Shown here piece by piece: positions 6,950-31,573 of a stretch of DNA of 64,000 nucleotides. Made by a program: the position numbers and the translations under genes. The stretch comes from Psammoneis japonica. Lineage: Eukaryota. The notes beneath the pieces are model-generated. The model worked only from the letters and a program-made list of their open reading frames with translations, was not told where the DNA came from and did not search any database. Position 1 is the stretch's first letter. Every line of letters starts with the position of its first letter. The stretch covers positions 260,874 to 324,873 of the forward strand of contig QPGO01000029.1 in assembly GCA_008632985.1 (NCBI GenBank), read 5' to 3'.

Positions 6950-7156
6950 ATGTTGTTATCGAGCGGCGGTGCGAAGCAAAAATTCCGCCCAAACCCTGTT
7001 TTTCGGGACTCATAACCCCTGCACATGGCTTATAGACACATCACGCAAGACGCAAGTTCCAAGTTGACGATGGTCGACGTAGCCCTACTTTAAAAAGTCA
7101 GAACACAGAACCCTCTTACATCATATTGCAGAGCTTAAGGTTCTTTTAGTGCTGCC

Positions 7157-8981: not shown

Positions 8982-9309
8982 TCAGAAAATCCTTTATTAA
9001 CTACGGTGAGTTACCGCTAGAAACTCTCCCCGCTTTACGATTCCAGCTTGGATGTCGCCGTCTGACCTTTGGATTTCAAACCAAATAAATAATTTTATAC
9101 TTAAAAGCAAAGATCTACGACTTTCTGAGTCTTTTTCGCGTCTATCAATGGATAGCCGCCATGTTCATGGAGGTAGTGCAGAGGCCTCGGCAGCTGACCC
9201 GAGTGTGGAATGCTGGCATCCGCAAGAAGGGGAGTCTCGAGCAGTTTGGTATTTTGAACCGTATTGTTCAAAAATACGCGTCGAGTGATGGGGATGGCCT
9301 TCAGCTTGG

Positions 9310-9556
9310 TAGGGCCCTCTACTCTCTAGAGTAGGCCCTCCCTAATCTAGCTCTCTACTCTAGTCTCTCTAGTAGAAGTAAGGTAGCTAGCTGCTACTCT
9401 AGAGAGTAGCTACTACTAGTTGGTTATCCGTACAGATAAGAGAGGCTGACAAAGAATTGTGTGCGAGTGCACTCTAGCCCTGCTCTACAGATAGAACTGT
9501 GGAGCGAGAACAAATCGTGCCGTAGTCTCTAGGGCCCTACAGTAGCTAGGGCCCTA
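9310..9556. repeat. CTA/TAG-rich low-complexity patch with short palindromes
   Basis: About 30 TA dinucleotides in about 250 bp, mostly CTAG/GTAG/CTAC; TAGGGCCCTA at 9530-9539 and 9547-9556. Confidence 0.7.
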
Positions 9557-9645
9557 CAGACAGATCGTCCCACTCGAGTCGAATAAGTCGTTGCTGCTGC
9601 TCGAAATTCACGGTAAACACAACACACAACCAACAAACACACACC

Positions 9646-10245
9646 ATGGCGACATGCCCGACTTCTGCCTCCAGTACGACTGCAAATACAACCACATCAG
9701 AAACAACAATCATGCCTCCAGTACAGTCTATGCCCACATCGCACGAGAACTCCGAGCTCGCGGATGGCAAAGGCACCAGCACTCATGCTGGCGAATCGCA
9801 GGAATCACCCCCTTCCAAGCAAACGCCGACGCAGTGTTTGTCGCCAACCCAATTGAAAACCGATGGGGCGTCGGAATCTTCAATCATCTCGAGTACCAAC
9901 CCCGTACTGGCTTCCACATTGTCCGATAATGAGGGAGAGGTGATGAAACGAAAGCACGAACACGACAGTTGCAATGTTCGGACTAACAAGAAGAGGGGCA
10001 CGCTTCCACTTGCCACTTCGATTCATATGAAGTTGCGTGCTGCCGGGGACGCTGGGGATAAATGGTGGCATGATCTTGAACGAAAACATGGTTTGAAGGA
10101 AGAAGAATCACTCGTGGTTTATGGAATCGTCACAAAGAACTTACACAAAGAAGAGTTTCCACCGGTCGGCGAAGGCTCGAAAAAGGAGTACTTCCTTTTG
10201 GCTAAGGAGGGTTGGCGCTTGATGAAGAATACAACGCTCTGCTGA
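9646..10245 (+). CDS. Hypothetical protein (Ser/Thr-rich N-terminus, charged C-terminal part); possibly transposon-associated or a pseudogene
   Basis: 199-aa ATG ORF after an AC-rich leader; normal TA/CG content; no recognisable family. Confidence 0.4.
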   Translation: MATCPTSASSTTANTTTSETTIMPPVQSMPTSHENSELADGKGTSTHAGESQESPPSKQTPTQCLSPTQLKTDGASESSIISSTNPVLASTLSDNEGEVMKRKHEHDSCNVRTNKKRGTLPLATSIHMKLRAAGDAGDKWWHDLERKHGLKEEESLVVYGIVTKNLHKEEFPPVGEGSKKEYFLLAKEGWRLMKNTTLC

Positions 10246-11199
10246 AACTGCATCCAAAAGAAAATGCGGAACAAATTTGTCGCGATGGTGTATGGACGAT
10301 GGTTCACGCCAGTCGCTGACAACGACTTAAGGCGTGGTAAAAGAGTTTGATCAGGCCGTATCATGTCTCCGTGTCCATGTGCCTGAGAATAAAATAATAA
10401 TTTTCTTGGCGCAAAGCGTTATTTTCATTCCAACAGTTTCAGTTGGCAATGAAGAAGCATCTGATGAACCACCCAATAATGACTCTGGAGTCCTTGTTCA
10501 AGAGACCCCAAACCTCTGCCCATGTGTTGGGCTTACATTAGAAGGGATAAATCCAAATGAGGCGGGGCGGGTTTCTCTGAGGCTTTCGCCCCGGATTGAA
10601 CCTCCGGTGTCTCGCCATACAAAGTTCCCAGTGCAGAGGCCAGCCTTCTAAGCTCCATTCGCATCTTGGTGCAGTGGTTCGTAAGGGGTGAACCACAGGG
10701 CCGTAGCCACCAAGAAGCATGCATTGTGTTCTGTGCAGATGATGAGCGGGAAAGCCCAGCTTCGCATGCAGTGAGAGACGAGGAATTGTTGTTCTACAGG
10801 TGTCCTTTTAAAGAGAAGAGATTTGAGCAAACCCTGATGCCATTGTGAAATCTGGGTGCTTGGTGAAAGGATTCCACTTCAATCTTCTTTTTTCTTGAAA
10901 GCTGAAACAAGCAGGGCAACCAGTGCACAGACAACAAATGTCACCATTTTTCTTTGTTGACAGTTTGCAGCATGTGCCATGGCTTCTTTGTTGCATGGCA
11001 TGGGTCATCTTCACATGTTGACTTTCATGGCAGCACAGCTGACCTCCATCAGACTCTCACAGTCAATGTCAGATCAGATGCTTGCTTGTCTTGCATCACC
11101 AATGACATGGATGAATTGCATTGCTCCCCTCTCTTGATCCACACGGATCAACAGACAGAGCCAAAATTGCAATCACATCAAGCCAACAACCAAAGCCAC

Positions 11200-12776
11200 G
11201 AATCTGCTGCCTCCATTGATGCCCTCATGATGCTCAACCCTGCTGGCCCCTCCTGAACCAAGCTTGCCACCAGCGCTCATTTCCTTGGAGGGATGCCCTG
11301 TCAGCTCCATTAAATTTGTGGCCAAACACCTTGCCACCAAAGCTGATGCATTTGTGCCCTCCCTTTGCCTCTTCTCATCCTGCTTGCTGACAAACAAACT
11401 CAAAGCTGTTTCTTCAGACATGTGCACTCATGTCCACATCCCAGCCACCTCCTTTTCTCTGACATCTTTTACAACCTCTCCTTCACCTCTGACAATCCTG
11501 CCCATGCTTGGTCATCTTTTCTTGACTGCATCTGTGCTTCCTTCTGACACTTCCTCCATCATCTGACCGACTGCCAATCTGACCTTCTCTTCCATGCTCT
11601 TGCTTTTGCCCAGAGGCCTGCCTTCCTCCCGCCATCCCTCCTCCCTTTGTCACCTCCCTTGCTCAATCCCTTCAACACTCATGCCTTGGTGTTGACTCAA
11701 CAGGCGACCCAACCATCAAACTCCATCCAGCTCATTCTTCCACCCACCTCCATCAAGTCACTTCCTGTGACCTTTGTGGTCTTCCGATGTCTGAATCACC
11801 TCTGTGCCATGCAAGTTGTTCAATTCCTTGTCAACAACCCATCCTTCCACCATGGCTTCAACTGCTTTCTTGTCTCCCACGCAAGCCTTGCCCTGCTTTC
11901 TTTCTCATGCTTGCAAGAATGCAACCACCTCTTCCCCTGCTCCCTTGCCATTGTCCCACTCCAACACAAACTGTGCCTTCCGTCCTTCCCTCTTTACACT
12001 TGCAGGTGCAGATTGCCCCTGTGGCCACAAGCTTGATGCCTGTGGTGACCATGCCTTCTCATGCTCTGGTGCCTGCAAACCCCTCCTCTCTAACTCAGTT
12101 GGAGACATGGTCTGGTCACTCTGCCATGCTCTTGGCCCCCTTGCTGGCCTCTGCTCCACCACCTCTGATGTGATCATTGTTGAAACCCTGGGCCTCCTTG
12201 TTCCTTCCCCACCAAATGCCATGCTGACATTGGAGTGCAGTTTCACACACACAATTCTGCTGCCATTGTTTTTTCTCTGTCCCTGCTCCCATGCCACCCA
12301 CCACTGTGTGCCAGGTTTGCCACCTCCCTCCAATGATCCACTTGCCATGGCACACCACAGCAGTGCTTGGAGCAAGTTTGTTGCTCAATCTGCCCCTTCC
12401 TCCTGTGGCCCTGAAATCATCCAGTGGCTTCACAGACTGTGGCAGCATCTTCCTTCTCCCCTTCACCTTTGGCCAATTCTCTCCCCACCCTCACAACCCC
12501 CCCCAGTCCTCTCCCCAAGATTTCAATGATCTTGATTGGCTCACATTGCCTGCCAATGCTCCCTGCTTGCCCTTCTGGCCTCCTTTCGTGTGCAGATGCT
12601 GCCTGGTCCCAGCTCTGCCCTGACTCCTTTGGCACTTTTTGCCACTCTCACTCCCCATCCAAGTGGGCCTCCCAAAACCTTGCTGTTGACAACATGCCAT
12701 CTGCCCTTTCCCCTCCCACCTGTCCTGCTTCCCAGAACAATCCAGTCACCTGCCACTGCTGCCTGTCTGACCTTCC
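11200..12776 (+). mobile_element. Degenerate CRE-like non-LTR retrotransposon fragment
   Basis: C-rich; residual peptides ADKQTQ and CPCGHKLDACGDHAFSC (zinc knuckle) are collinear with the element at 48524-50632. Confidence 0.65.
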
Positions 12777-13089
12777 TGTTGGAATGTTGAGATGAGAGAC
12801 CCAAATGTTGTGTGATGTGACCCAGACAATTTGAACAGGAAGGATGTGGATCCTGATGTGGTCCACCAATGTGACCATCTTTGATGAGATCACAACTGTC
12901 ACCACATTCTTTGCATGTGTTTTATTCTCACTCTTTGGAGTGAATCATTTGGTTTGCATGATCCTCAGTTGGTGTCAAGAGGCACCTGTCATTTTGGGAG
13001 TCACGCAGTTTGCATTTGTGCCAAGGCATGCCACAGAGCTGACACATGCTGCCAAGGCCAGTGTGATGAGTTGCTCAGGAGACCTCTGA
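12777..13089 (+). repeat. 5' LTR of Copia-3
   Basis: Begins TG; aligns with 19427-19733, differing mainly by CA/TG swaps. Confidence 0.8.
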
Positions 13090-16000
13090 AGATTTTTTTT
13101 GTTTGGAAGACATTGACTTGCTTGTTCAACATTCACTCCAAAGAGTCACAGCCCTGCATTTGGTGCTCATTTGCCTCAAGACTGCCACCCACACCAAGAC
13201 ATCAGAACACCTGCAAAATGAGTGGGAGGAGGTGGTGGATCAAGCTGTCAAGGCCAAGATGCATCATGGCAGATGTGGTGGAAGTCACAGGTCATCAAAT
13301 CAGAAGATGAAGACCAGTGTCAAGAAACACCTTCAGTCTGAGATGAATTTTCATCCTTTGTCACTGAACACAGCAATTCCTGAAATGCGACATTCAAGGA
13401 AGTCCTCAAGAAGATTGCTCCACACACACAGAAAAAGCATGATCAAGGGGCACATCCAGCAAGATCCATTGAAGACATGAAGCAGAAAGAGTTCTCAAGC
13501 AAGATGCTCACATGTGTGGGATCTGACATCATGCTGCCAGCAATTGATGACCCCAACTGCCATGAACAGCTCATGAAGAAAACCAACAAAGGCAAAGGTG
13601 TGGAAATGCAGCACAAGCAGGACTGCAACGATTGGTGTGAGAAGGTCAAGAAGTTCAAAGAGAACAAAGCTGCCACATTTGCAACAGACAAAGCAGAGAT
13701 TGAAAGGCAGCCCTGATTTCAAATCTGCAAGAGAGGATCCAGCTACATTGCTGAAACTGATGATGCTTGCCTTTGATTCTGTGGTGAGAGGTGGGCACCT
13801 GTTCCATGTGCTCATGAAGGCATGGAAGAAAATCCTTGATGGAGGCAGCAGGCAGCAAGACACCAACCATTGAACAACTGCCTGTCAAGATTCAAGAACC
13901 AGCAAGACTCCACTGGAGAAGCATTGGGAGACAAGTTGCTTGAGACGTGTTCCTTTCAAGCATGAGGGAACACAAAGATGCTGACAACATGAAGAAGAAA
14001 GAAATGAAGGAGCTTGCATTTGAGATGTGGACAACACACCTGTTTGTGGCAAACAGCAATGTGATCACCACTGCAAGAACCTGAAGATGAGCTTCATGAG
14101 AGACCACAGCCTGGACAAGGACACCTGTCCAAAGGCCCCAGACAAGGCAATGGATGTTGTGCCCGACCATCCAAAAGACAATGATCTGCACAAACAGTGG
14201 AAAGACGCTGCACGGAATGACTGCAACTAGAACAACAGGACCAAGAATGGGAGTGAAAGCACTGACTCAGAGGAACAGAAGGACCAGAGTCATGCTCAAC
14301 AGAGCAACCAGAGTGACAAGTTCATGAGTCACTGTTGTGGTGCAAAAGGCCACATGACCCCCAAATGTGGCCACAAGGGCACTGTCCTCCACAACAGGTG
14401 GTGCAAGAAGACTGGTGAGAAGCCAGAAAATGGGGTCCAGAGCCATGCACAGATGCAAGGTGGAAATGACAAAGACTCATCAGTGGAGAGTGACAGTTTG
14501 AGTGTCAACACCATGAGATCCAATGGATCAACCCAGCCCAGCTGCAGCAGAGGCTCTGCACAGCAAGGGTTGCAGTTGGACATCAAAAGACTGGAAGTGA
14601 GCACAAACCAAGCCAATGCAAACATCAATTCACAGGAGATTGTCCTCAAAAATGGTTTTGCCCTTGGCATGGCAGCCAGCCAGAGACCAGTGCACAATGT
14701 GTGACTGGCAAGGATTGAGATTGATCTGTCAACCAATGCAGGTGTGGATGCCCTGGACAAAGACTGCACAATGCCAGGGTGGGGAGACACAAAGCTTGGA
14801 TCAGATGGCACAACAGCAAATGCCTTTGTTTTAAAGGATGCAAAGAACAAGTGCCGCATGACTTGTGATGACAGAGTGGCAGACAAGTTCCAACCAAGAA
14901 GACTGGAAACAAAGTCATGGTGTTCAAGGTCAACAACATTGGACTGCACATGTTTGCCCCAAGTCAAGAATTCTTCAACTGCACTGAAGAGCTGCAAGCA
15001 CATGTGAGGAGCATGTGAGCATGCTGTCAAAGGATGAGAAGAAAACTGCCAAAAAGAAGTGCAAGGGCACCTCTGCAGTGAAAAGGGTTCCAAGCTGTTT
15101 TTATGATGGAATCAGGCAAAGAATCTGTCCAACATGCTGGAAGATGTGGACAGAATGGCGGACATGTGGGGGGCATGGACACATGCACTAAAAGGAAAGA
15201 CCAAATGTGTGCACCATTCCCACAAGCCCATGAGAGGAACAATGTCACAGCATTGCCACCTGAAAATTAAGAGAAGCAGAGAGACTGCATGATGCTCTGC
15301 ATTGATGTTGTGGAAGTGTGTGGAGTCAAGATGCCACACTTGACAGACAAGACTGTCAAGCACCATTCCAGCATGAAGCTCAAGTCCAAGAACCATGCCA
15401 ACACACACAAGGCATTGGATGTGATCCTGCAACAGTGCCACATGAGCACATTCAAGATCATTTTCATTGAGTGCAACCCAGCATTCAAGGACATGTTGGC
15501 AGCAGTTGCTGATGGCATGGACCTGGTGTTGATGTCAATGAATGCCAGTGACCATGTCCATGAAGTTAAGAGAAGCGTTCAGACTGTCAAAGAAAGAGCA
15601 AGCACTTGGGTCACTGCGCACCACCTGCCACACAAGACAACACCAAAGTTGACATGTGAGCAAGCCAAAATCAAGAACGCAGTGATGACAAATGTGCACC
15701 CACAAAAGGAGGGAATCTCAGACACACACAGTGCACACATGATTGCACAACAAAGACACCTCAGCTGTGACAAACATTTTGAATTCTCATTTAAAGAATT
15801 TGTCCCATCCCATGCCAAGCCCAGCCAATCAAACACAATGGATGCATGTGGTGTTGACAGCATCTGCATGTGACCATGCCATGATGTCCTGAAGGGCAGA
15901 CACTGTGCCATGAACTTGCACAAGAGCAAGCTGCTTAATTGCTGCAGGTTTGCCATGATCCCCCTGACTGACATGCACATTCAAGCAGTCAAAGAAATCA

Positions 16001-19000
16001 CCATTGCCAAGGGCATTGAAGAATTCAAGCACACAGGCAATTGCAGGGACAACTTGTGCAACAATGGCTGGATTGCAGCAGTGGACCACAATGAAAGCAG
16101 CAACAAAAGAAACAGTGCAAGCAATGACAAACACAACAAAAACAACATTGCCAACAAAAAAGACTGTGAAGAAGAAGAAGAAGAAGTGGGAGCTTCCAGT
16201 GACAAATGTGGAGAAGCTCAAGATGTGTTGGCAGACAAAAAGCAGAGCCCAGATCAGCATCATGAGGATGACAATGACATGACCACAATGACCAAGACAA
16301 AAAGCATGAAGAACAAGAAGAACACAAAGACACATCACAGGACAGAAACAAGCAAGTGGAACAATGTGACCTGAAACAGACCAGAAGCAGCAGATCCTGC
16401 ACAGTGGTGACATGCCACAAGAAACATGAGGCTGCACAGAGAGAACCAAGAGCGCAATTCACAGGAGTGGCAGCAGACACCAAAGAAGAAAAATGGAAAC
16501 AGTTCAAAATTGAATGCTGCCATCATTTGTGGACAAATGCAAGCCTGAATCCAAAGAACAACATGCACTGCAATGCAGAATTGGAGTGGTGATTGCACAC
16601 TTCATGTGTGAGATCAATGACCAACTCTAATTGGGAGAGGACATTTCCTCAGCCCACAGCAACACCTGCCACCTGAGTGCCTGCCGCAAAGGCATTCAAC
16701 CCAAGGAGGCATGAGGCCTCAGAGAAAAAAGTTGGTCAACTGTGCAAGCAAGTGTGCTTTGTGCCAATGCAAGCCAAAGACATGACTCTGATTGAAAGAA
16801 AAAGATCTGTGACAGCTTTGATGTTCCTTGCAGAGAAACAAGATGGTCGAGTCAGAGGACGAATGGTTTGCACCAGTGGAAAACCAACAAGAGAATGGTT
16901 GGACAAAGATGAGTCAGCCAGCCCAACAGAATCATTGGAAGGAATCATGATGACAGCTGTTGTTGATGCCAAAGAAGAGCAAGACACAATGAGCCCCAAC
17001 ATGCCAGACATGTTCATGCAAATGATTGATGCCAGACCCCAAGGAGGGCAAAGAACAGATTGTGATGAAGATTGCAGGAGTGTTGGTCAACATGCTGGTG
17101 AGCAGTGATCCCAACCCATGTGGGCCACATGTGTTCCCAGAGAAGGAAAGAGAGAGTCCTCTGCACAAGAGACCATTGGAGCCATCTGTGGCATGTTGGT
17201 TGCAGCTCTGCTGTGGCATGAGCAACTCCACAAAGACCTGGAGAAAATTGGGTTTAAGTTCAACCCATGCAATCTGTGCATTGCCAATCGCACAGTCAAT
17301 GCAGCACACTGTCTGTTTCCACATGGATGACCTGCTGTCAAGCCACAAGAACTGCAAGGTTGATGACAAATTCCTGAGTTGGCTGAACAAGATGTGTGGG
17401 AGCCATGGCAAGGTCATTGCTGCTCAAGGGAAGAAGCACAACTGCCCAGGATGACCCCAGATTTTACCAAAAAGGCAAGGTGAAGGTCAACATGACCAAC
17501 TGTGCAAAGAAGATGGCAGACGAGTTTCCAGAGAAGCTTGAGAGCACGGATGCTGCCATGACACCAGCTGGGGAAAACTTGTTTGACACTGGTGGCACTA
17601 GATTGCCAGCCAAGAAAGCACATGTGTTCCATGAGTGGGTGGCCAAAGGGCTGTTTGTTTCCAGGAGAGGCCACATGGATGTGCGCTTCACTGCAATGCA
17701 TCATGTGTGCACGTGAGGGAACCTGCCAACAAGGGTTGGGGGAAGTCAGTCCATTGTGTCAAGTGTCTGAACTGGACACAAAACCAAGTTGCCACATTGA
17801 GCGCAGATCACCTCTGAGTTGTGAAGTGGTGCATGGAGACATTGCAGTGCACCCTGACTTCAAGAGCCACGCTGGAGGAGACCAATTTGCAATGGAGTGA
17901 TGCAGGCTGTGTCAAAGTGGCAGAAACTCAACACTGAAGCCGCACAGAGGCTGAACCAGTTGGAGTTGACAACGTGATAACTGTGATCTCATGGAGCAAG
18001 TTGTTCATAGAACACCAAGGTCATCCAATCAACAACAACATCCTGCACCAGGATGACAAGAGCACCATTCCACTGGAGACCAATGGGCACAGAAGTGCAG
18101 GCAAATGATCAAGAGGAGCACTCAACATTCAACATTTCTTTGTTGCCAATCAGATCAAGAAGGGCAACTTCAGAGTTCAATGACAGAAAAGATGCTTGCA
18201 GACTTGATGACCAAGCCATCACAGGGCAAGAAGTTCCACAAATTCAAGGGAGCCATTGTGGGCTGCTGAAGAGAAGGCAAGCATGAAGGACACACAAGCT
18301 GTTTGTGACATCAAACAAGAACTCTGATGCATGTGGCTGAAATTGGAGCAAGTCAGCACCCAAGAACCCAATTGTCTCACATGAGGTGTCCAGCATGAAG
18401 CAGTCTGCTGACCCTGGAGTTTGAGAAGGATGGAAAGATTGTCTGGACCTGCGCCCATGGCATGACAGACAAGTGTGCAAAAGAGCTTGAAGACAAGTGG
18501 CCCAAGCAGCAGGCAAAAGGGGTTTGATGCAATGTGCAATGTGTGCAAGGCCTGGAACAGATGGCCAGGTGAAGTTCATCAATGTGTGTCAACTGCTGCA
18601 CCAATGACCTCCATGTTCAAAAAGGGAAGTGTGAATTCACACAAGATGATGGAACAAGCAAAGGCAGCACACATGACCAAGGAGTGTCAGCACATTGTCA
18701 GGACAGGCACAACAATCCAAGGAACAAAATGTTGCAGGAGTGGCAACAATGTGGATTGTTTCAATGGATGCAATGAAGAAATGACAGTGAGGTCAAGAGG
18801 TGATGAAGGTCATGTTGTTGCCCTTGACAATGAAGACATTGGTCAACTGTGTGGGATCAGTCAACAGTGAGTTGTTCCACCTGCAGCTGTGGGATGACAC
18901 CAGGTGTGGTGCATGTGGGCCACTTGTGGAATGTGTTCCCAACCATCACAACAACATGACACATTGGTGGTTTGGTTTGGCAACAGATGACAGTGGAGTT

Positions 19001-19426
19001 GTCTGTGATGCCTTGAAGTTGGCATGCTTTTTTCAACAAGAAGCTGTGTTGAAGCAAAGCTGGTCAGAAGCGGGGCTGTTGTGATGTGGAGTTTTGCCTG
19101 TTGCTGCTCTGGAGAGTTGACAAATGGGTGGCAGAAGGAATTGACAAGATGGATGCAAAGGGGTTGTACAGCAAAGAAGCATGAGAGAAACTCTGTCTTG
19201 CCTGTGCAAAGAGTTTTGTCAACCAGGTGCATGGCATTGAAGATGAGTTTGATGTGATGCCACACTTCAAGGGCTGCAGATTGGGTCAAAGAACATTCAT
19301 GATGTGTGAGTTGCCATGTGATGACAACATTGCCATGCCAGATGAGTTGGGTGGGACTGCATTGAAGAATCTCTGATCACTGTTGTTGGGGAGGAAGATG
19401 GGTCATCAATGCAAGCAGCAGGAGTG

Positions 19427-19733
19427 TGCGGGAATGTTGAGATGAGAGACCCAGATGTCACACAATGTGACCCAGATGATTTGAGTGAGAAGGATGTGGA
19501 TCCTGACCTGGTCAATGGACATGACTTTCTTCAATGAGATCATGACCATCACCACATTCTTTGCACATGTTTTGTTCTCACTCTTTGGAGCAAATTGTTT
19601 GGCTTGCACAATTGTCAGTGTCAAGAGGCACCTGTTGTTTTGGCAGTTGCGCAGTTTGCATTGATGCCAAGGCACACCATGGCTGACACATGCCACCAAG
19701 GTGAGTGAAGTCAGTTGCTCAGGAGACCTCACA
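19427..19733 (+). repeat. 3' LTR of Copia-3
   Basis: TG...CA termini; aligns with 12777-13089. Confidence 0.8.
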
Positions 19734-19899
19734 GGATGCCCCCTTTGGGAGACATTGACTTCTGGCTCAACACTTGTCTTTCCACCCCTCCCCTCCATCT
19801 GATCAGCATCCATCTGGTGCCCCTTTTTTCTCCAGTCCTGCTTCTCCTGTGGTTTGGGTGTTGCCACACCATGAGCAGGGTGGGAAATTGCAGTGGCGG

Positions 19900-22800
19900 T
19901 CTGTCCAACAGCTTCTGGCTGTTGCCTGAATTTGGGTTTCCAAAGGGGAGCTGGTTTTCAAATGACCTTCAACATCGGCACATGTGCAGCACTCATTCTG
20001 CAGGAGGACTCTGCTTTGTGTGACCATTTGCAATGGTTCGGCAAGGACACCTGCACAAAATTTTTTCATTGCAAAACATGTGTGCAAAATGACAAATTTT
20101 CTCTTTTGTCAGGATTTGGCAGTTGTGGCTGGGGTGGCACATTGATTTGCTTTTGTTTTCCAAACCCGGCGATCTGGTTGGATGACATGGGTCACGGTTT
20201 TTTTCAGTCATTTTAGTGCTGATTTTCCCTGGTCTTGTGTGGATGATGTCATGCAATGGACAGGAACAACACATTGATTTGTTTGTGTCTGTGGTGCAAA
20301 TGTCAGATTCAATGGGTTTTTTGTCTTTTGCATCCTTCAGCGATGGGCGAGACGATGATTTCCTCAAATTTTCATCGTTTCTTTGTTTTCTTGATCTCAA
20401 AAAAGGCATTTCCTTTTTTCGTGTTCAATGTTGCAGTCAGCTGACATTTGCAGGAAGGTCATTTTCATTGCTTGACAAGGCTGGTCTCTCTTGTTTGGCA
20501 GGTTCTGTGTGACTCAAGGTCGCCAGGAAGAAGTCCTTGGGTGCTTCTGCATTGATCTTGTTTTGGTGAGCACAGTGCATCACTTTTTTGTTTTGCAGTG
20601 GCTTGTTGCAGTTTTGTTGGCTTGTTGTTGTCACAGCTTCCACAACACAAAGAGAGCTCTCTGAGCTCATGCTGAACACTTCATTTGACAATGCAGAGAA
20701 AGCCAGCACAACTTCATTCATGCAAATGAGCAGCATGACTGCATTTGTGACAATGATGAGATGAGTGTTCTGCAACTGGAAGATCAAGTTGCAGTTTTAG
20801 AGCACATCATCATTTGGATGTTGACAATCAATGTGATCTGGACTCAATGGGGCAGGATTGTTCAAGTCATTTTTGTCATTTGAAATGGATCAACCGGCGC
20901 AGATTCTAAAGATTGTTGAGACAGGTTGCAATGACAACAACAAAAATGCACAAACCAGAGTCATTTTGTGGGTTTTCACATTTGCACAACTGGTCCAAGA
21001 TGGATTTTTGTTTTTCCAATGGCTGCCATTTGACATGAGTCAACCACTCCTCCACCTTTTTTGTTGCAACTCTTGTCATCCAAGAATCAGGAGGACACAA
21101 TCTTTCAAAATCATTGTGCAGACGGATGTTGCCATGATGCTGTTTCAAAGAGAGTTGCACCCAATGACATGTGGCTCAGGGTCATTGGATTGGTCAATGT
21201 TGCAGCACATCACACTGTGATTCTCTGCCAAAATCAATGACCACAAAAGCTTCTTTAGGAATCTTGCATGGCACCACAACTGCCAACTCAAGTGCACTGA
21301 TGTTGTTCTCATCCACATGCACAAGTGTGCTGGTTTGGGAGGTCCAAATTTTTGTGTGGGACTGCAGGAGGGTCTTTTCACAAAGACACCATTGTGAATG
21401 TGATGGCTGTCTTGACTTGCATTCCTTCCTTCTCACACAAGGATTGATGCTCTTGGCACGCACAAGATCACTTCTTCATGTTCACTCATCTTTCAAGGTG
21501 CTGGCTTGAACATTTTTGAATTTGAAATTAAAGCAGGGAAAACCAATGGTGACATCTTGGATTTGATCTTGGGCGACATTCCCAAACACTGTGCAGAACA
21601 AGAAAGAAAGACTCAAAAGTCTCAACAAACCACCCCCCTGACAATTGTCATTTCAATGCCTCCATCCAACTGGATTTGAGACATTCTTGGATGCACCACT
21701 TCATTCTCCTGGTTTGTGACATCCAAGCAAAGCCTGTTCTTGCAGGTTGCTGACTCAGCAAAACCCACACCATGTCTCCAATTGCCACAAACTTTGTCTG
21801 GTTTTGAAAATGTGTGCAGAAATTTTAGCACGGCTTGCAGCATCATGAAATCACAAGACGCAAGGAACTTGTTTGAAGATTGTGAACATCTTTGTTTCCT
21901 GCCACCAACATTGACTCTGAAATGGCCAGAGTGAACAAACTCATTTCTCCTTTCTGTGGCAATGGCTCAGTCAAAACCAATGCTTTGCAAGGGCAATGGA
22001 CACCATGCATCTCATTTTCTCCTTTTGCAGCTGATCTTGCATTTTTGGCAATTCGTTCATGTTTGTCTTTGTCCTCTGCAACCACATCAACTCAGTTGAC
22101 AATGTTTGGTGCTTTCCTTCATTTTTTGAATGGCACTCCTTTTGCACTCATCAATTCTTTCCACAATGGAATGTTTTCTTTGCACACTTTGGTGTGTCCT
22201 TTTTGTTCTTTGATGCGGAATGACACATGGTCTTGTTTCGCAACTTGTGCTGTCTTTTTTCTTCTTCTTCTGCATTTCCAATTTTGCTTGACAGGGTGAT
22301 CTCCTCAAACTCCATGCTTTGTTTTCATGGTTGCAGATTCCATCCACAAACTGCAAGTGCTTTGACATTGTGCATTGGATGTGCAATTTGGAATGTGCGA
22401 TGCATTGAAAACGTGGCACTCCACACAATTTTTGGCCATTGTCTGTTGTGCTTGCAATTGGACAATGCAACAATGTGCCAGATTTCTCACAGCTTTGTGA
22501 CATGACCATGTTGTTTGCCATGAATTTTGTTGCTAAAATTGTGTGGTGTGGTGACACATCTTGCTTTTGTGTCATTTTGACATGACAAACATGCGAGTGA
22601 TCACCAGCACGCTGTTTTAGAGGATGTCTCACTGAAAAATTTGTGTGACATGTCAATGTGAACAAAACTCAAATCACACACATTTGACATTGTCTCCTCA
22701 AAATCTTGAGTCCTGTGTTCATTTTAACACAAGAGTCAAGTGATTGTGTCTTTTCAACTCTTTTCCACCAAAAATTGACACAGTCTTCTTGTGTTGAGAA

Positions 22801-25800
22801 TGTTGATTGAGAGCAGGTGTGAGCATCTTTCTCACATTGAGCTTTCCTCTTTGTTGTCACTTACATTGTTGCTCACATGTTGTTGAATGGCACCGGTGTG
22901 ACAATGGCTGAAGATTGACAATGACCGCAACATCAACAAATCTGACACCTGCGTCAAATCAGAGTCAACTGCTCCTTTTGAGCCCATTGTTGGCATGACA
23001 AGGAAGGAATCTTCAATTCAAACCCATCACTCAATTCATCGTCATCTGTTCTCAATTGCATCATCATCAAAGAAGGATCTAAAATGGGAGAAGCAATCCA
23101 TTTGGCAGAAAAAAAGACAAAGTGCATCCCGCTGATGGGGTCTCAGCGCTGACTGTGAATTGAAGTTGGGTCACATTTAAGAGGCAGATGAGCAGAGTGG
23201 CTGTGATTCACTTTTGGAATTCCCTTCTTGTTTGGATGGAGTTGTGCAAAAAAAAGAAGCAAACATGAAGAGCCAGCATGCTTGGACACTGTCATGTTGG
23301 AAGTGGAGCAGAGACACTGCGCTGCTTCTGAGAATTGGTTCAATCACAAGTGAAGCACATTTCCAGCAATGGCATTGACACTCACGTCATTTGACAAGTG
23401 GTTTTCACAGGTTTGTTGTTCATTGGCTTCATTCACGTGTGCATGGAGGAACTGAAGATGCTCATCCAGCTTGCTCTCATCAAGCTTTTTCAAAGTTTTT
23501 GGCGGATTGTCAGAAGGAACTGTCTTTTCTTTGTCTTGATCATCTCCCAAATTAATTTCTGGGCTCACATGTCCACAGTCAAGAACCTCAACAGGACACA
23601 GGCAAGTGCTGGGATGGAAGCACATGGCAGCTTAGTTTGGTTTTTCCTTCAACCAATTCTCAGTGAATCCTGTTCCATGAGTTGTCATGATCTTGACAAT
23701 GTCATCAACCAGAACAAACTGATTCAGGGAGTGTGTTTCTCCAGGCTGGGCACGCCAATTCAATTTGTTCATGTGACATTTGTTGTCCATGCAACCTTTG
23801 CTCATCTCAGCATTTAGAGTCATGGCAGACTGTTGTAAAATGCAACAATGTTTTGTTGGTTCATGATGCACTTGCATCAATTGAGAACATTGACACATTG
23901 TGACACTCTTCTCCAAAACAGCTGCTAAAACTGTCAACCAAAAATCTTCACCAATGTCCTGATTGGCAAAGATGAGTGGACATTTGCGCCCCCAATGCTT
24001 GCGGCTCTTCTCTTCCATGTCTGTGTTGCACTGCATGACATTGTTTGACAGATCTTTTCAACAACAACCGCTGTCCACAACGTTGAGTTCAACCAAGTCA
24101 TTTGCACAATTTTTTTTGGGTTTTGCACTGCTGCACTTGCTTGGGACCCTGGCTGCAAACACCATCACTGTCTTTTGCAAGACCAGCAGTGCATGGCCAA
24201 AACCCATTGTTTCTGGGATGTGCCCTGTTGTCTGCATGACCACAATTGCAACATTGACACATTCTCAGCAGACAGCTCACCTTTTTGGTCTGCAGGTCCC
24301 ATGACACACAAACCAGCTGCATTCTCTTGTGTCCTTGATGGCCTCTTGAGTTTTGTTTTTCTTGGGCAAAAGAAACATTGGCAGAGAAGAAGCACTTTTT
24401 TGTTCATTGGAAGATGAGCTCCTTTTTGCTCAACTTTAATTCCTTCCCACTCATTCTTGATTTACAAGCATTGCCATTGTTTTCTTGAGCAATCCTGGGT
24501 TTTGCAAACAAAAACATCAAAGAAAATGGCAACAATTTTGTTTGCGATTGTGGTGGCTGGGAATGAACAATTGCACATTGCAGCTCAGAAATTGAGCAGA
24601 AACCCAGAAATGTGACATTGCAGTTTTTAACACACATGTGTGGGTGTTGTTAAGATGACCACATTTTGCAACAGTGCAAAAGTGATTGTGATTCTGTCAT
24701 TTAATTGAGTTTTTAACTGCCACACATGTCATTTTAACCAACAACCAGTTTGGTTCAATCAACTTGCAGTGCAGTGCAGATTTTCTCCTTGGACATTGCT
24801 TTGAGACAAGTGCAACCTGTTTCTGCACACAACTCAAATTGAAACATCAAACTTCACATTTCAATTGAAAACTCCAATGACTGAAATGTCAGCTCCATGT
24901 GAAATGTCATTTGTGAGTGTCAAAATCATGGAGTCCTTGAGGAATGTCTCACGTGCATTGACAAAATTTGATGATCCCTTGCAATGGATTGTCTTTTGTC
25001 TTCAAAGGACTTTTCTTTCAGTTGAGCCCGGTTGCAGACAACACAAACTCAGACAACAAAAACTCACTTGGCAAAGATCGCACATTGAGCTGGTGCAATT
25101 TTCCCACTTTTCAGTTCAAGGACAAGCTTTGGTTTGCTTTTCAGAGTGACAAAGTGTTGCAACTGTTGCAGAAGCCATCTTTTTGCTGCCCAGACCTTTC
25201 ATTTGACAGAAACCCTGCCAGCTTTGGCTGGACTTGTCAAAGCTGTGGCAAACATGTTGCGCATGAGCTCCAATCTGAGTTTTTCCTTGCTTTTTGGATT
25301 TGCATTCTTTGCTTTGGAAACTTCTTGGATTTCATGGCAAAACTGCCTTTTCAAAGGTCATCAGATTCTTTCATGAGAGCGAGCTTGCATGCCAAGGTTT
25401 GGAAGGTGTTGCAATGATTGGAGCCACTTCACCCACAAAATTTGGGTGAGTTCTGGCATTGCATTCAGTGTGTTGGCAAGTTTTTGTTGTCTTTTGGGCT
25501 TGATGTCAATGCTTTTTCTTTGGTCACACTTGTGCCACTTTGAATTTTGATGTGACATCTGTGGTGCAACAACTGCAAATGCTGGGATGCAAACCTCTCT
25601 GATTTGCTGATGACATTTCAACCCTGCTGAATTGCCCGCCAACGCTGCATCTTGACAAAATGATGTGGTGATCTCTCATCCTCCTTGGGATTCAAACAGA
25701 CAATCAGCTTGTGCGCTTTGCACAAATGATGGTGAATTTGGAATCGGACGTCTGAACTTTCTTTGATTTCCTTTGACTGACTTGCCGCCATTTCACCCAA

Positions 25801-28700
25801 ACATGAAAACATTTTTTCTTCCTTGAGCATGAGTGTCCAGCATGGTTCTTGAGCAGTGCCACTCAAGATGGCCTTTTTCTTCACATTCATTGTCACATCT
25901 TCTGTCCAACCCAAGTTCTGTCTGCACTCTTCTCCCATTTTCAATTTGAGTTTGTCGGCAACAAAGCCCATGACAACATCATCTTCATTTGTCATCAACA
26001 CAGGATCTTTGACAACCAACTTAAAAAAACAAGCATGATGAGCTGTGCAATTGTGTTGTTGATCAACCACTTGTGCCAAAAACCAATGATGACATTTGAG
26101 AATGAGATGTCGCCAGTGTTTCTTGCTTGTGAAGCTCTCCAACTCTTGTTGCATCATGTGAATTGCAATGGTCACATTTGGACTTGAACTTGGTTGCTGC
26201 ATGAAAACACCTCAAATGTGCCACATTTTGGTGACTTCAAAGAAGCCAAATGCAACCAAATGTGTGCACTGTTGCCAATGCAACCATCACATTGCAGCAC
26301 AATCACTGCTCAACAATGAGTTGTTGTCGCCATTGCCACTCTTGTCTTCCAAATGTGGCTGAAACATTTCCTTGCCCTTTTCAATCAGACCATCCACTTC
26401 TGCAACTTTCTCTTGCTCCTCCTTGGTCGCAGATCCCACACTTTCTTCACAACTGGGAATTTTGCCATCACTCTTGCTTGAACTGTCCTCTTCATCCTCT
26501 TCCTCATCAACATGAGTTTTGGAAGTTGACACTCAGTGGTTTCAGTTGTGTGTCTTTTTTTTCTTGCAACCACTTTCATCGTCATCTTCCTCTGTTGGAC
26601 CAACTCCACTGGTGGCTGCATTTGCAAAACAAAAAAAGCACAACACAACAAGTGCCAACAAACAAACATGCACTCCACAATTTCCAAATTAAAGTGAGTG
26701 GACTTGCACTCCAAAAATGCTTGCATCCACTTGTGCGTGCACAACTTCTGCACTTGGCAGATTCTGCCACTTCATCACTGATGGGTTTGTCACCAACTCC
26801 AGCTGTGGCCTGGAGGAATTTCCAATGTCGCCAAATTGCAGCCATGACTGACAAGAATTGCACTCATGACCACTCTCTTCACTGTGTCTTGAGGCATCAT
26901 AACTGGCGCATTGAACCGCATTTGCACCGGACTCAACTTAAAATCACTTCCTCTAACTTGATTGCTGTCCCACACCCTGGCCTTCTTTGAACTTCACTTT
27001 TCATCTTCAAGCCTTTGTTGCTTGGTGCAATGCTTTTGCCTTGGGATGTGACTCCACAAAGTGCAATTTAAAAGTTTTGCAACAGCCATGTGTGAGCTGC
27101 TTCTGTGAGACTTCAAATGTTTTCTGAGTTTTGTCATCTTGCTTTCCATGTCCCCAAATGACTCAGAGATCATGATTTCAGTGCATCGTTGCAACCAACA
27201 AAAATTTAGAAAGTGACCCAAAGCCATGCAAAAAACATGAAACTCTCCTTTCTTCCTTGATGTCCTTTTGATTGTAAACAACAAAAAGAACAACTTAGAA
27301 AATGGCCAATTTTGCCATCTCTAATGTTTGACAAAAAACAGCTGAGTGACTCACCCAAAAGTGTTCGCTCCCTTTGGCACACCTGTCCATTGTTCTTCCA
27401 ATTTTGGAAAGTTCTGGCAATGTCCTTTGGAGTCACCATCAAAAAGCTTTGTGCCAATGAGCTTGCAAAAACAATGGGCCAGTTGCTGCATCTCTGGCCT
27501 CTCAAATTCATTCTTGCACAAGCAAGCAACGGCGGAACAACAACCAGATTACAAAGACACACAGATTGTCAAAATTCTTGAACCCAATTTTCACACTCAC
27601 CTCACAGTGAACAAATGAACTCTTTTCAAAGTGCAGCGGGTTGTTGCTGCCCTCAAAACCTTCTCAGCTGCTTTGACAACTCCTTTCTCAACATCTTTGA
27701 CTCCGTCTTTCCTCTCATGGCAGCTTGCAAGCATTTGTCAAATTTAGCAACATTTTCCATTGACACGCCAATGAAGCAGCTGTTGTCATCATTGGACAAT
27801 TGTTTGTTTGACAACTTTCCCAAATTTTCCACATCATCTGGGAACTTAGATGAAAACTCCAACAACTCTTGTTCAATTTCTGGAGTTGCAAGCAACTCAT
27901 CAAAACGTTCATTCAACTTGTTCAAACAAGCCACTCTTTCAGCCTGAGCCTCTCCTGACTCAGGTCCAGTCATTCTTGCATTCTTCTTCTCCTTCTTTCC
28001 TGCCTTCAAATCACTTTCCAAATCTTTCTCATTGAGCCCTTTCTCTTCATCTGATGTGACATCATCCTTTCCCTCAGCTTGACATGTGGTTGCATCTCTG
28101 GGCACCCCAAACAAATTTGATGTTCCAAACTTCTTTCCAACAAACCAGCCATGAAGATGACAATGTGCCCTGGATCCACTGACATGGGAGTGGCTGCAAT
28201 CTTGATTTCTCTGTTTCAGGATGATTGCTGGCCACAGGTGCATCCTGCATCTTCTTGTTTTTCTCCCCCTCCTTCAAACCATCCTCTTCTTGACTTTGAC
28301 CTTCATCTCCTCCTTGTTTGCATCATCTTCAACAGGAGCCACTGATGATGACTTGGCATTTTGCTTGTCCATGACATTTTGTTGTCCCATTGTGTGCTCT
28401 CAACTGAGTGCAACAAGCACCTGCACCGATGCTGTGCTTTCTGAAAAATGGTGCTGCAGCGAACAAATGACAAGAACCACCACTGCACCTGCACGCTGGC
28501 GCAGCGCAGTGGTCTGTTCTCATGTGACCAAACTGATCTTGTTAAAAGTTCCAAATGATCAGTTTCTTTTGTTGACATTCTCATCTTTGTGCTCCAACTG
28601 TCATTGCTCAACCCCAGCTGCTCCACAACAGAACATTGTTTGCCGTTCACCACATGAACACTTCAATGTTTTTCTGCAGCAAAGCAAAGAACATCTTGGA
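19900..28700 (-). pseudogene. Degenerate minus-strand coding relics of an unidentified large element
   Basis: Fragmented charged, protein-like frames (27653-28243, 26287-26532, 23344-23625) and weak Ulp1-like protease remnants near 20900-21330; saturated TA/CG loss prevents identification. Confidence 0.35.
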
Positions 28701-29630
28701 TGACTCTTTTTCTTTTTGAGTGAAACAGCAGATGCAAAATGATGCCATTAAATTTTGTCTTTGCAAACCAAACATCACACACAAATGACCGTTGAAAAAT
28801 GACGACGACCGCCCCTCCTCCCGAAGTGCAATTTTCCTTCATGTGCTTGTTGCTCTCACCCCACACATGTGCTGCACTGTCAAATGATGTGAGCCTGAAG
28901 CTGTGAACCCTTTCAGTTTTCAGAAAAAGGCCAAACCACAGCATGCAGCACAAAAAACATGCAGAATTCCATGGCAACACTTTGCCGTGTTGCAAATCAA
29001 AATCATGTGGTGAAAGCACAGTGAAAAGCATGAGGGGTGGAGAATGTCCACATGAGCAATGCAAGCAGTTTAATGTCACACAACTGTTGCTTGACACATG
29101 CAAAGGTCATGTGTCTCAAAACTGTCACCAGAGCAGAGATGTCAAATCAAAAATTTTGGGCGGCCCTTGTGTCACCATGGCAAAGTGCGGTGAAACGCTC
29201 GCCAAATTGCCACACAAATTGCTGGCACAATTGGCTGGAGATGCTTTGTGAGGCTCTAAATGACTGTCAAAGCAGATTCCCTTGGCATGAGATCATTGTC
29301 AAACAGGACCAGAAATGGGTTGTCTCTTTCCTTCATGCTTTTGCCGTGGTTTCCATTTTTTAACCACACGGTGAAGTGCGCACGTAATTTTGTGCCAAGC
29401 GCTGCAGCATGCTGTTGTTTTGTGGCAAGGGATTGTGCACTAAAGACCAAAGTCTGGGAATGCAGCAAATGGAAGATGGCTAGACTTGCAGTGCATTTTC
29501 CACATGAAAAAATGTCCAGGTTCTTGTCCACCGTCATGTGGAATTCTGAGTCACGAACAGTGATTCGTGGGCAACTGCAGTCTGAAATCTGTCCTTTTGA
29601 AGACGAAACAACACGGCAAAGCACGGGGCA

Positions 29631-29793
29631 CCATGGCGCCCTTTGGACGCCAATGTCTCAAAATCTGACAGGGGGCATGACCCGGTCTCAAGTGCATTTT
29701 CACTTGTCAGGCAATCTTGTGCTCACATGGCCATGAGACCGGGTCATGCCCCCCATTGGATTTTGAGACAATGGCGTCCAAAGAGCACCATGG
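29631..29793. repeat. 60-bp imperfect inverted repeat with 43-bp spacer (MITE-like or hairpin)
   Basis: 29631-29690 is the reverse complement of 29734-29793 with about 7 mismatches. Confidence 0.85.
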
Positions 29794-30276
29794 AGCTGAC
29801 GGTTTTTTGATGCTGTGATGTCAGCACTGATTTCCTCACAGGAATCCAGTGCAATCCCATGCAGAATTTCAAAAATCTCTTGGATGCACATCACACAAAT
29901 TTGCACCTCCCATTTGCTCAACAACGGTTGACGAAATCAACATTGCTGATTGCTGTTCATCTCAACAACCTTGCTCATTGTCAGTCAACGTGACGTCCAT
30001 TTAAGAAAATGCCAAAAAAGAGTGACCCTTCCAAAGCTGCAGCCTGCGCTGCCACACATCGCCTCTACACTGCACCAGCCACGGAAATTGAAAACCATTT
30101 TTGCAATTGACAGAAATGTGGTGGACACAACGAGCCACACCACATTGACTGCCAACGAGCCTTGGTCACATCTGCTGTTTTGAGAATGGAAACTCCAATG
30201 AAAGGAGGCAACTGCTCTGGCTTCAAAAACAATGAGCAGCCAACCAAGGCTTCACTGAAGAATTGGGATCCTCATC

Positions 30277-30537
30277 AAATTTTGCCAGTGCAAGTCTTGA
30301 GAGTTGCAAAGAGCGTGAAAGTTGCAAGAACCAGGTGCTGCAGCATCATTGTTGTTTGGCACAAGTTTTGTGCTACAAACAAGTTGCACTGCTGAGTGGC
30401 ACAAGCATCATGCCCACCAAATTTTGCCAGTGGTGCAATTCTCGTGAGTTGCAATGAGCAGGAAAATCACAAGAATTGCTGCACTGTCATTGTTGTTTGG
30501 CGCAAGTCATGTGCAGCGACCAAATTGTGCCAGCGCC
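30277..30537. repeat. Imperfect tandem duplication, unit about 140 bp
   Basis: Both units share AAATTTTGCCAGTG...GAGTTGCAA...TCATTGTTGTTTGGC.CAAGT. Confidence 0.6.
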
Positions 30538-31297
30538 GTTCTGTCATTTGTGCCATTGACAAATCTGTGGCAGCAACCCATTTCCAAGTGGAGAGAGACA
30601 GACACACCATTGGCTTTTTGCCTTTTCACAGCTGTCATCTTCAATGTGTGTGAGAGTGATGACGTTGTCACTTGTCACACAAAACAACACAAGACTCAAG
30701 ACTGTGGTGTGTGCGAGGCTTTGTGAGACTTTGATTGCATGTGCGGTGACCACGCAAGATGTTGCAAACACAGACATGCACAGAAGTCCACATGGCAAGG
30801 TGCGGTCTGTCCAACCTTGTGTTGCTCCCAGACTTTAGCGTTCCCTTGTTTGCGGACTGAACAATTTCTATCCTCAACTGTGCGAAGGCCCCCTTGTCTG
30901 CGCGGCGGGTGCACTCTGCCCGACCACTGTGCCAACTCACCCCAATTGTCTGACGGAATCTTTCTTTCGCTTTTCCCATCAGTTGGCCCCAATTTGAATC
31001 AAAATGCTCTTCTCCATCAATGATGTGCTTGTGTTTTCATTCAGTTTGAATTTCATTCAAAATCTTTGTTTGCGGTCACCTGTTGAATTTCTGCCTCTTG
31101 CCATCAACCCACACTTGCTCGATGCAACACAAACTGGAAAACAGCAGCTGTGGACAACTTGTCAGTTGTCGTGCTGGCAATTTCCACTTTGCCCCAACCT
31201 CAGCTGCCAAATCAAATGTCATCTCACCTTGCTTCTGTTTGTGCTTTGTGCCATTGGAGGTGGAGGCGATGCTTCCAAGCATTGCCGCCGCTTTGCA

Positions 31298-31573
31298 TGA
31301 CAGAAAATGAAGGCAAATGGCAAGAATTCAAACAACAACTCCTTGCTGCTGTCTAAATGGCAGATGAGTCTCCGCTCAGAGACCGTTGCAGGAGCCGAAA
31401 GACGCGCAAGTCGGCATGATCGGGCTGCTGTTGTCATTCTTGTGAGCCTTGTGGCTTGAAAGCAAACTACATCGCGCGTGAACGCGCGGAACCAAAGCAC
31501 ACAAAACTGTGCACGGTAAACTAAACAGCGCGCGACACTTCGCGCGCACCCAAATCCTGTTCAAATCCTGTCA
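31298..31573 (-). repeat. 3' LTR of Copia-2
   Basis: Ungapped direct repeat of 35573-35848. Confidence 0.95.

Follow-up and report, generated by a model that had tools for sequence, protein, structure and literature searches.

TpA dinucleotides have nearly vanished from the mobile elements in a 64,000-nucleotide (nt) stretch of the genome of Psammoneis japonica (contig QPGO01000029.1 of assembly GCA_008632985.1, forward-strand positions 260,874 to 324,873), which we analyzed as a whole and here call the window. The region is a nest of dead long terminal repeat (LTR) retrotransposons in the nuclear genome of a diatom. Five features of the change are established within it: the conversion of one dinucleotide into TpG or CpA, its confinement to mobile elements, its timing after insertion, its strand symmetry, and its gradient with the flanking bases. 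On each strand, TAY (where Y is C or T) is about five times more mutable than TAR (where R is A or G), and support from the window extends to a ranking of the +1 bases, T>C>G>A. We regard it as highly probable that a flank-dependent process turns TpA into TpG and CpA in these elements, and the full explanation offered below, in which a per-strand TAY gradient and an agent are included, as moderately probable.

The first description of hypermutation specific to TpA in foreign DNA, in a preprint of 2026, came from one chlorarachniophyte, Bigelowiella natans. No report of TpA hypermutation in diatoms was found in the literature that we searched. The diatom case adds another major lineage to the phenomenon and, in retrotransposons, another class of target, on which it has run to saturation. 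Furthermore, a per-strand, roughly fivefold, additive TAY rule provides a quantitative test both for candidate enzymes and for the Bigelowiella mutation list.

Survival of TA sites and their flanking bases

Element borders and states were taken from a 500-base dinucleotide profile, and LTR pairs were found by self-BLAST and then aligned. The old decayed blocks (10751-31297, 35849-37500, and 49501-58000) have observed/expected ratios (o/e) of 0.00 to 0.16 for TA and 0.00 to 0.66 for CG, with TG and CA at about 1.5 to 2.3. Two younger elements (25-6949 and 31298-35848) have TA at 0.04 to 0.54 and CG still at 0.74 to 1.18, and the host segments have TA at 0.25 to 1.18 and CG at about 1. By bins, the decayed blocks have TA at 0.03 to 0.08, CG at 0.05 to 0.5, and TG and CA at 1.6 to 2.1, and the host bins have TA at 0.35 to 0.64 and CG at 0.8 to 1.04. 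Decayed DNA gives way to host DNA within 500 bases, with sharp borders near 10.7, 37.5, and 58.0 kb.

An earlier note on this DNA, made from the letters alone, had claimed that the TpA sites surviving across 13081-29600 are mostly YTAR, and our counts bear this out. The interval retains 61 TA (3.7 per kb), of which 48 are YTAR (TTAA 24, TTAG 11, CTAA 10, CTAG 3), 1 is RTAY, 6 are YTAY, and 6 are RTAR; a YTAR count this high has a binomial p of 2e-18 if 25% is expected, of 1e-22 at the 20.1% of host DNA, and of 1e-27 at the 15.5% of undepleted related elements. Its partial estimates were also accurate, being exact for 13081-18300 (10 of 15 rather than “about” 10) and correct in calling most of the TA in 20100-24800 YTAR (21 of 24); 24801-29600 has 21 TA, 17 of them YTAR. 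Across all decayed blocks together there are 101 TA, comprising 74 YTAR and only 2 RTAY, and the pattern thus extends past the interval first described. The YTAR excess is absent from the host DNA of the window, where 164 of 815 TA (20.1%) are YTAR and 184 are RTAY. Among the steps that end in A, TA alone is depleted: GA has an o/e of 0.98 to 1.15, CA is enriched, and AA, which the earlier note had also judged to be undepleted, has 1.02 to 1.41 in 4-kb bins over 12001-32000. The survivors are mildly clustered, with 12 of 60 gaps shorter than 50 bases and a coefficient of variation of the gaps of 1.09. At 24437-24735, seven surviving TA fall within 300 bases, all of them TTAA or TTAC in T-rich runs.

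The changes are transitions and therefore preserve the purine or pyrimidine class of each flank, which makes a correction for ancestral frequency possible. We counted the pyrimidine-purine (YR) steps TA, CG, TG, and CA in each flank class and multiplied the counts by a baseline share of TA. Two baselines were used, the host DNA of the window and related copia loci from metagenomes. For the latter, 49 loci were available (39 to 77% amino acid identity in the best segment); the 32 with o/e of at least 0.6 for both TA and CG (135.5 kb) formed the baseline, and the other 17 were left out. Over the 30.7 kb of decayed elements so corrected, 74 YTAR sites were seen where 233 to 234 were expected (survival of 0.32), 25 sites with one favored flank where 690 to 809 were expected (0.031 to 0.036), and 2 RTAY sites where 297 to 490 were expected (0.004 to 0.007). 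Uniform survival across NTAN contexts, the outcome that the earlier note had set against its own proposal, is rejected (chi-square p of 1e-42 to 1.5e-58, and of 4e-32 to 1.5e-43 for 13081-29600 alone). The younger elements show the same order in milder form, with survival of 0.46 for YTAR, 0.23 to 0.27 for mixed sites, and 0.10 to 0.16 for RTAY.

On a logarithmic scale the losses add. The negative logarithm of survival is 1.15 for YTAR, 3.3 to 3.5 for mixed sites, and 5.0 to 5.5 for RTAY, which corresponds to 0.57 to 0.58 for an unfavored half-site and 2.74 to 2.90 for a favored one, a ratio of 4.8 to 5.0. The additive model predicts 1.2 to 1.5 RTAY survivors, and 2 were observed; a single survival rate for mixed and RTAY sites is rejected (p of 0.005 and 0.0004). 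Because the logarithms are additive, each strand acts as an independent 5′-TAY-3′ half-site. A model in which a dimer reads the palindrome is ruled out, since sites with one favored flank lie midway on the log scale and are distinct from both extremes. Enrichment among survivors declines from TAA (2.6 to 3.3) through TAG (1.0 to 1.2) and TAC (0.31 to 0.37) to TAT (0.16 to 0.18), with TAAA the most protected context (4.6 to 8.3). The +2 base is without effect: TACG, at 0.06 to 0.08, is not below TACC, TACT, and TATT (0.06 to 0.08).

Direction and timing of the changes

If a flank acts on the base adjacent to it, YTAY should become YTGY and RTAR should become RCAR, and we tested this proximal rule on the products. 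In the old blocks, the Y..Y class holds 1,102 TG and 808 CA, and the R..R class 737 TG and 1,069 CA. The odds ratio is 1.98 (p of 7e-25); for host DNA it is 1.19, and for the relatives 0.78. Six of six decayed segments are skewed in the same direction, and in three of them (19773-24800, 24801-31297, and 49501-58000) both classes reach p<0.05. Strand symmetry is evident in the R..Y class of the old element, with 200 TG and 224 CA. The orientation of the products thus supports TAY>TGY and RTA>RCA.

Three LTR pairs permit the changes to be followed one at a time. The old element, an LTR retrotransposon of about 7 kb on the plus strand (12781-19772), is fully decayed (TA o/e of 0.00 to 0.09, CG of 0.00 to 0.25), and its 5′ LTR (12781-13131) is 76.9% identical over 351 bases to its 3′ LTR (19431-19772), the two having been paired by self-BLAST. 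The younger elements have LTRs at 25-258 and 6716-6949 (95.7% identical) and at 31298-31573 and 35573-35848 (93.5% identical). Of the 11 single TA changes in the three pairs, 8 follow TAY>TGY or RTA>RCA, and favored half-sites were hit in 8 of 12 cases versus 3 of 22 for unfavored ones (Fisher p of 0.005). The earlier observation that five of six polarized LTR changes fit this rule corresponds to the pair 25-258/6716-6949, which lies outside 13081-29600 and in which we likewise find 5 of 6 at TAY or RTA. A distal-base model (RTA>RTG, TAY>CAY) was rejected: only 2 of the 11 LTR changes fit it, whereas 8 fit the proximal rule, and the products it predicts have the reverse of the orientation observed.

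The same alignments date the process. The two younger pairs differ at 25 places, namely 10 single TA changes, 7 single CG changes, 5 TG/CA doublets, and 3 others, so that 22 of 25 are transitions at TA, CG, or TG/CA steps. The old pair has 19 TG-versus-CA doublets and 1 TA versus TG, as expected if ancestral TA or CG was resolved independently in each copy. Since it is chiefly at TA and CG steps that the two LTRs of an element have diverged, mutation went on after insertion. In the younger LTRs, the loss per copy since insertion is 0.455 for TA (6 sites kept in both copies, 10 in one only) and 0.115 for CG (27 kept in both, 7 in one only), and TpA decay is about five times faster per site than CpG decay. 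In both younger elements (25-6949 and 31298-35848) most TA is gone while CG remains at host level; TA loss precedes CpG loss.

CpG decay has flank effects of its own. In the old blocks, CpG survival is 0.11 to 0.12 for YCGR and 0.21 to 0.24 for RCGY, and the fastest-decaying context is TCG, read on the other strand as CGA (survivor enrichment of 0.65). Of the 285 CpG that survive in these blocks, 32 are in GCGC, the commonest context, and only 8 are in TCGA, versus 102 of 1,146 in host DNA. A preference for TCG is a property of some deaminases and of basidiomycete hypermutation.

Tyrosine codons and metagenomic relatives

Loss of TA should be visible in proteins at tyrosine codons. We selected the 39 alignment columns in which at least 60% of the undepleted metagenomic copia relatives have Tyr and compared them with the protein of the copia element in the window. 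That protein has Tyr at 13 columns, Cys at 11, His at 10, Phe at 4, and Trp at 1, and the relatives have Tyr in 1,090, Cys in 12, and His in 17 of 1,258 cells; Cys or His therefore occupies 21 of 39 conserved Tyr positions in the window element versus 29 of 1,258 cells in the relatives. At 1.2% Tyr overall, it ranks last among 121 homologues (median, 3.8%), and Cys plus His make up 8.3% (median, 4.6%).

Two metagenomic copia copies, L030 (129-1850) and L036 (1-1722), share 94.5% identity, and between them are 25 single TA changes, 20 TG/CA doublets, 8 CG changes, and 19 others. These differences show the same process in whichever organism or population the copies come from. Their surviving TA are YTAR in 13 of 26 cases (L030) and 6 of 13 cases (L036), versus the 15.5% baseline. 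A third locus, L014, is also TA poor (o/e of 0.31); in the remaining 46 of the 49 loci the TA o/e is at least 0.52.

Several points weigh against a process that reads TAY on each strand. Tyr codons preceded by a pyrimidine should give mostly Cys under this rule, and in the window element Cys:His at such codons is only 8:5; at the YTAY Tyr codons of the TA-depleted relatives the ratios are 4:3 (L014), 1:8 (L030), and 4:4 (L036). Selection on lineages that were still mobile may blur the Tyr-codon test. Between L030 and L036 the preference is not visible (7 of 17 favored and 18 of 47 unfavored half-sites hit), in a test that is weak in that the remaining TA are mostly YTAR already and sites lost in both copies are invisible. 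Possible reasons for the mismatch are selection, such invisible shared losses, or a different host. In addition, the polarity of pairwise LTR changes was assumed to be TA to TG or CA; the ancestral frequencies are proxies, taken from host DNA and 32 of 49 relatives, for old elements whose families Pfam did not identify; the flank bias of CpG decay itself (YCG faster than RCG) accounts by our estimate for about one-fifth of the product asymmetry; the context in the window is broader than those of the adenine deaminases with which we compared it (TACG for TadA, GAA for BjADAT2); and the evidence consists of 64 kb of sequence, from which an agent can be proposed as a candidate. The TAY (or RTA) target preference that the earlier note had read from the survivors is supported in this window. 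Survival, product orientation, and LTR changes agree with it, as a gradient and not a clean split between pyrimidines and purines; the direction of change is not seen in two small polarized tests.

Proposed mechanism and alternatives

The explanation that we favor is a transition process at the DNA level, limited to mobile elements, that turns TpA into TpG or CpA (T:A to C:G), with the decay of CpG to TpG or CpA trailing at a several-fold-slower rate. On each strand, the A of 5′-TAY-3′, equivalent to the T of 5′-RTA-3′, is the preferred site, and the contributions of the two strands add. RTAY sites are lost first, sites with a single favored flank next, and YTAR last, above all TTAA at the junctions of T-runs and A-runs. 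The likeliest agent would be an enzyme that acts on one strand at a time and requires a 5′ T, a DNA adenine deaminase (converting adenine to inosine, a base that pairs as G). For a process that makes only transitions, works on single strands, and depends on a 5′ T, deamination of adenine is the simplest chemistry, and we propose it tentatively, as a candidate suggested by the pattern of substitutions. It is conceivable, although we think it rather doubtful, that diatoms, like Bigelowiella, have a dedicated genome defense enzyme that rewrites TpA in mobile element chromatin strand by strand, reading TAY. If so, the enzyme would be a natural DNA adenine deaminase or thymine oxidase and would constitute a second, nonfungal form of repeat-induced point mutation (RIP), ancient in the SAR group, and the order T>C>G>A would serve as its biochemical signature.

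The main rival to adenine deamination is the oxidation of thymine. A dioxygenase of the TET/JBP type would oxidize the T of 5′-RTA-3′ to 5-hydroxymethyl- or 5-formyl-uracil, and the latter mispairs with G to give T>C, so that the sites and products would be the same as those of adenine deamination on the opposite strand; A>G on one strand and T>C on the other are indistinguishable in these data. The target would be a 5-methylpyrimidine followed by a purine, as in methylated CpG, which is also decaying in the same blocks, and dinoflagellates, within SAR, convert thymine to 5-hydroxymethyluracil preferentially at TpA and TpC. However, excision with error-prone repair should add transversions, and 22 of the 25 differences between the younger LTRs are YR transitions, and in Bigelowiella 230 of 231 mutations are transitions. 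The literature matches listed for 5-hydroxymethyluracil together with diatoms were dinoflagellate papers only. We consider thymine oxidation unlikely. Under error-prone repair, the mutations would arise in patches that an eta-type Y-family polymerase, which makes A>G changes at WA (where W is A or T), synthesizes in methylated heterochromatic DNA. The hot spot of polymerase eta includes TA, methylated repeats are often repaired, and CpG decay is indeed found in the same blocks; yet AA, the other half of WA, is not depleted (1.02 to 1.41), and TA loss runs ahead of CpG loss (0.455 versus 0.115 per copy, with CG at 0.74 to 1.18 in the younger elements). As a by-product of CpG repair is not expected to outrun its trigger, this alternative is very unlikely, and the reservation of the earlier note about polymerase eta fits the undepleted AA.

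Editing of RNA or cDNA during retrotransposition, by an ADAR/ADAT-like or APOBEC-like enzyme, with inheritance by new copies, would explain why the internal TA of the younger elements survives at only about 0.23 of baseline when the LTR loss since insertion is 0.455 per copy. Internal loss exceeds postinsertion LTR loss, so part of the loss predates the present insertions, and former Tyr codons read His about as often as Cys. However, that preinsertion share is equally explicable as chromosomal decay of the source copies. The LTR pairs differ at TA and CG steps through mutation that continued after insertion, both strands are hit equally, and TG/CA outcomes reached independently saturate the old LTR pair; moreover, ADAR prefers G on the 3′ side, the reverse of the order T>C>G>A. 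We give editing before insertion only a slim chance. The last alternative is that no true flank preference exists and that the pattern reflects ancestral makeup, newly arisen TA, chance, or an assembly or base-calling artifact at modified bases. The ancestral state of the old elements is known only by proxy, the L030/L036 pair lacks the preference, and the best-matching public run is perhaps from the same culture. Against this, two unrelated baselines give 15.5 to 20% YTAR compared with the 73 to 79% observed (p of 1e-22 to 1e-38), composition would not produce graded, additive survival, the products are oriented as the rule predicts, conserved Tyr is replaced by Cys or His, and the contigs of the public run, at about 99% identity, have differences of their own and so are not simply the same assembly. 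A systematic base-calling error would not give LTR copies with different TG/CA outcomes at the same sites. This alternative is largely refuted, and the probability that we leave to it is minimal.

Elements and genes of the window

In the old element, a zinc-knuckle-like stretch of gag, SHCCGAKGHMTPKC, is read by eye in the plus-strand translation at 14327-14368; it is decayed, with Ser in the first Cys position, and had no Pfam match. The element is preceded by a decayed block (10751-12780) with a host border at about 10.5 to 11.0 kb and followed by further decayed mobile element DNA (19773-31297) in which neither LTRs nor domains are recognizable. This last block holds 43 of the 101 surviving TA (41 in 19773-29600 and 2 in 29601-31297), 38 of them YTAR. 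None of 71 open reading frames (ORFs) across 10.9-30.4 kb matched Pfam, and tblastn of the copia pol of the window against the old elements found nothing. Two more decayed blocks lie at 35849-37500, with a sharp host border at about 37500, and at 49501-58000 (TA o/e of 0.00 to 0.13, CG of 0.00 to 0.47), with a sharp border at about 58000. The GC content of the decayed DNA is 0.41 to 0.53. The window holds no RNA families, and 10751-31297 has a single tandem repeat, a 32-base array, so that simple repeats are not the cause of the TA pattern. C-rich stretches at 11001-13000 and 48001-51000 lie at the edges of decayed blocks, with GC skews of −0.26 to −0.49.

The younger element at 31298-35848, on the minus strand, fits the definition of Ty1/copia, with an LTR pair around a pol frame (31521-35627, minus strand) that is open over 1,368 codons and matches RVT_2 (E of 5.5e-27); its TA o/e is 0.05 to 0.54 and its CG o/e is 0.75 to 1.16. 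The other (25-6949) has TA at 0.04 to 0.39 and CG at about 0.74 to 1.18, with a weak copia reverse transcriptase match at 916-1761 on the minus strand. The host genes (UCH, LRR, RWD/Prp3_C, DUF1995, zf-MYND, and ESF1) form an ordinary eukaryotic set, and no deaminase is among them. The control stretch at 37501-49000, with LRR, RWD/Prp3_C, DUF1995, and zf-MYND, has TA at 0.37 to 0.91 (0.25 in the final 500 bases) and CG at about 1. The DUF1995 protein (44877-45947) shares at most 67% identity with its best named relatives, which come from transcriptomes or genomes of the diatoms Grammatophora, Fistulifera, Striatella, and Leptocylindrus.

Reads cover the LTR of the old element to a depth of up to about 518, compared with about 55 to 60 for single-copy DNA. 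Contigs from the public run agree with the decayed DNA at about 99%, as over 12933-14305, where there are nine other letters and four gaps; the TA-free text is thus not peculiar to one assembly, although the run may derive from the same culture. Among the 40 listed of 171 differences between the window and this run, 34 are in old elements, and these include 11 of the CpG decay type, 3 TA/TG differences, and 3 TG/CA doublets. The doublets are at 12169-12170, 12684-12685, and 16745-16746, and in one reading the two haplotypes or strains diverged while each site perhaps still read TA or CG. A contig of another data set, run X2, skips 85 bases with GT..AG ends at 8533-8619, just 3′ of the UCH frame, which is an intron. 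This skip suggests that X2 is RNA derived despite its label, “DNA?”; X2 does not cover the decayed elements. No RNA data set was listed as matching 7001-17000.

The decay has consequences for annotation. In the old blocks, TAA and TAG occur at 1.97 and 0.85 per kb, versus 8.95 and 9.98 in host DNA, and TGA at 27 per kb. With TAA and TAG nearly gone and TGA alone left, dead DNA is full of long false open frames, and 10500-31300 (20.8 kb) has 99 open frames of at least 90 codons on both strands. The length of an open frame is thus no sign of activity here; the 1,368-codon copia frame has lost more than half of its conserved Tyr. The decayed elements also evade domain searches (0 of 71 ORFs in Pfam). 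Finally, the LTR divergence of 4 to 6.5% lies nearly all at TA and CG steps, so the age of the younger elements would be greatly overestimated from it.

Comparison with known systems

Fungal RIP resembles the process described here in that transitions hypermutate repeats or mobile elements at a dinucleotide target with sharp borders. RIP, however, turns CpA into TpA, so that TpA is enriched and GC lowered; in the window TpA is destroyed, CpA and TpG are gained, and GC is roughly kept (0.41 to 0.53). Decay of 5-methylcytosine accounts for CG>TG/CA in the same blocks, where the CG o/e falls to 0.00 to 0.25, but it covers the loss of CpG only, and its weak flank bias is opposite in purine and pyrimidine terms. 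ADAR hyperediting shares A>G changes in repeats and a preference for 5′ U. ADAR prefers a 3′ G, whereas in the window TAG is among the survivors (1.0 to 1.2), both strands are hit, and changes followed insertion; the earlier note had also disfavored ADAR, and the unfavored 3′ G, the two-strand targeting, and the divergence of LTRs after insertion are in keeping with that judgment. Polymerase eta, the agent of the second phase of somatic hypermutation, likewise makes A>G changes at TA, but AA should also be hit and is not depleted, and the loss of TA is independent of prior CpG loss.

Adenine deaminases of the TadA/ADAT kind act, as does the process in the window, on an adenine with a 5′ T or U; they accept C at +1, and their recoding of Tyr to Cys is seen here too. 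Bacterial TadA needs TACG within YTACGAA in a stem-loop, and a C>T change at +1 abolishes editing (PMC12255301), and amphioxus BjADAT2 acting on DNA prefers TCG for cytosine and GAA for adenine (PMC10354150). The TCG context of BjADAT2 is the fastest-decaying CpG context in the window, but its adenine context is GAA and not TA; compared with TadA, TAT in the window is at least as mutable as TAC, the +2 base is irrelevant, and TACG has no privilege. An assignment to TadA/ADAT, which the earlier note had leaned toward, is thus not specifically supported for the process in the window.

The closest likeness is to Bigelowiella natans. Mutation accumulation lines acquired 231 mutations in two integrated viral regions. 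According to the authors, the 230 that were A>G or T>C all fell on TpA, at about 1,000× the genomic rate, and the process was active in only some lines (10.64898/2026.01.13.699255). The genome has TpA-poor clusters rich in CpA and TpG that include reverse transcriptase and DDE genes, and Mettrop et al. propose an ADAT2-like DNA adenine deaminase; the main text makes no mention of flanks, trinucleotides, CpG, or diatoms (10.64898/2026.01.13.699255). Both cases have a TpA-only target, TpG and CpA products on either strand, spared host genes, and long-term TpA depletion with a gain of CpA and TpG, and both organisms belong to the SAR group. The two differ in that the Bigelowiella mutations were measured directly, in single-copy giant virus and virophage inserts where TpA still makes up 3.3% and 9.2% of dinucleotides, whereas those of the diatom are read from the sequence of LTR retrotransposons that are near saturation (TA o/e of 0.03) and also undergo CpG decay. 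With its TA to TG/CA transitions and its host DNA spared up to sharp borders, the case in the window is best filed with this recently described kind of TpA hypermutation, to which it adds a diatom host, retrotransposon targets, and a substrate rule.

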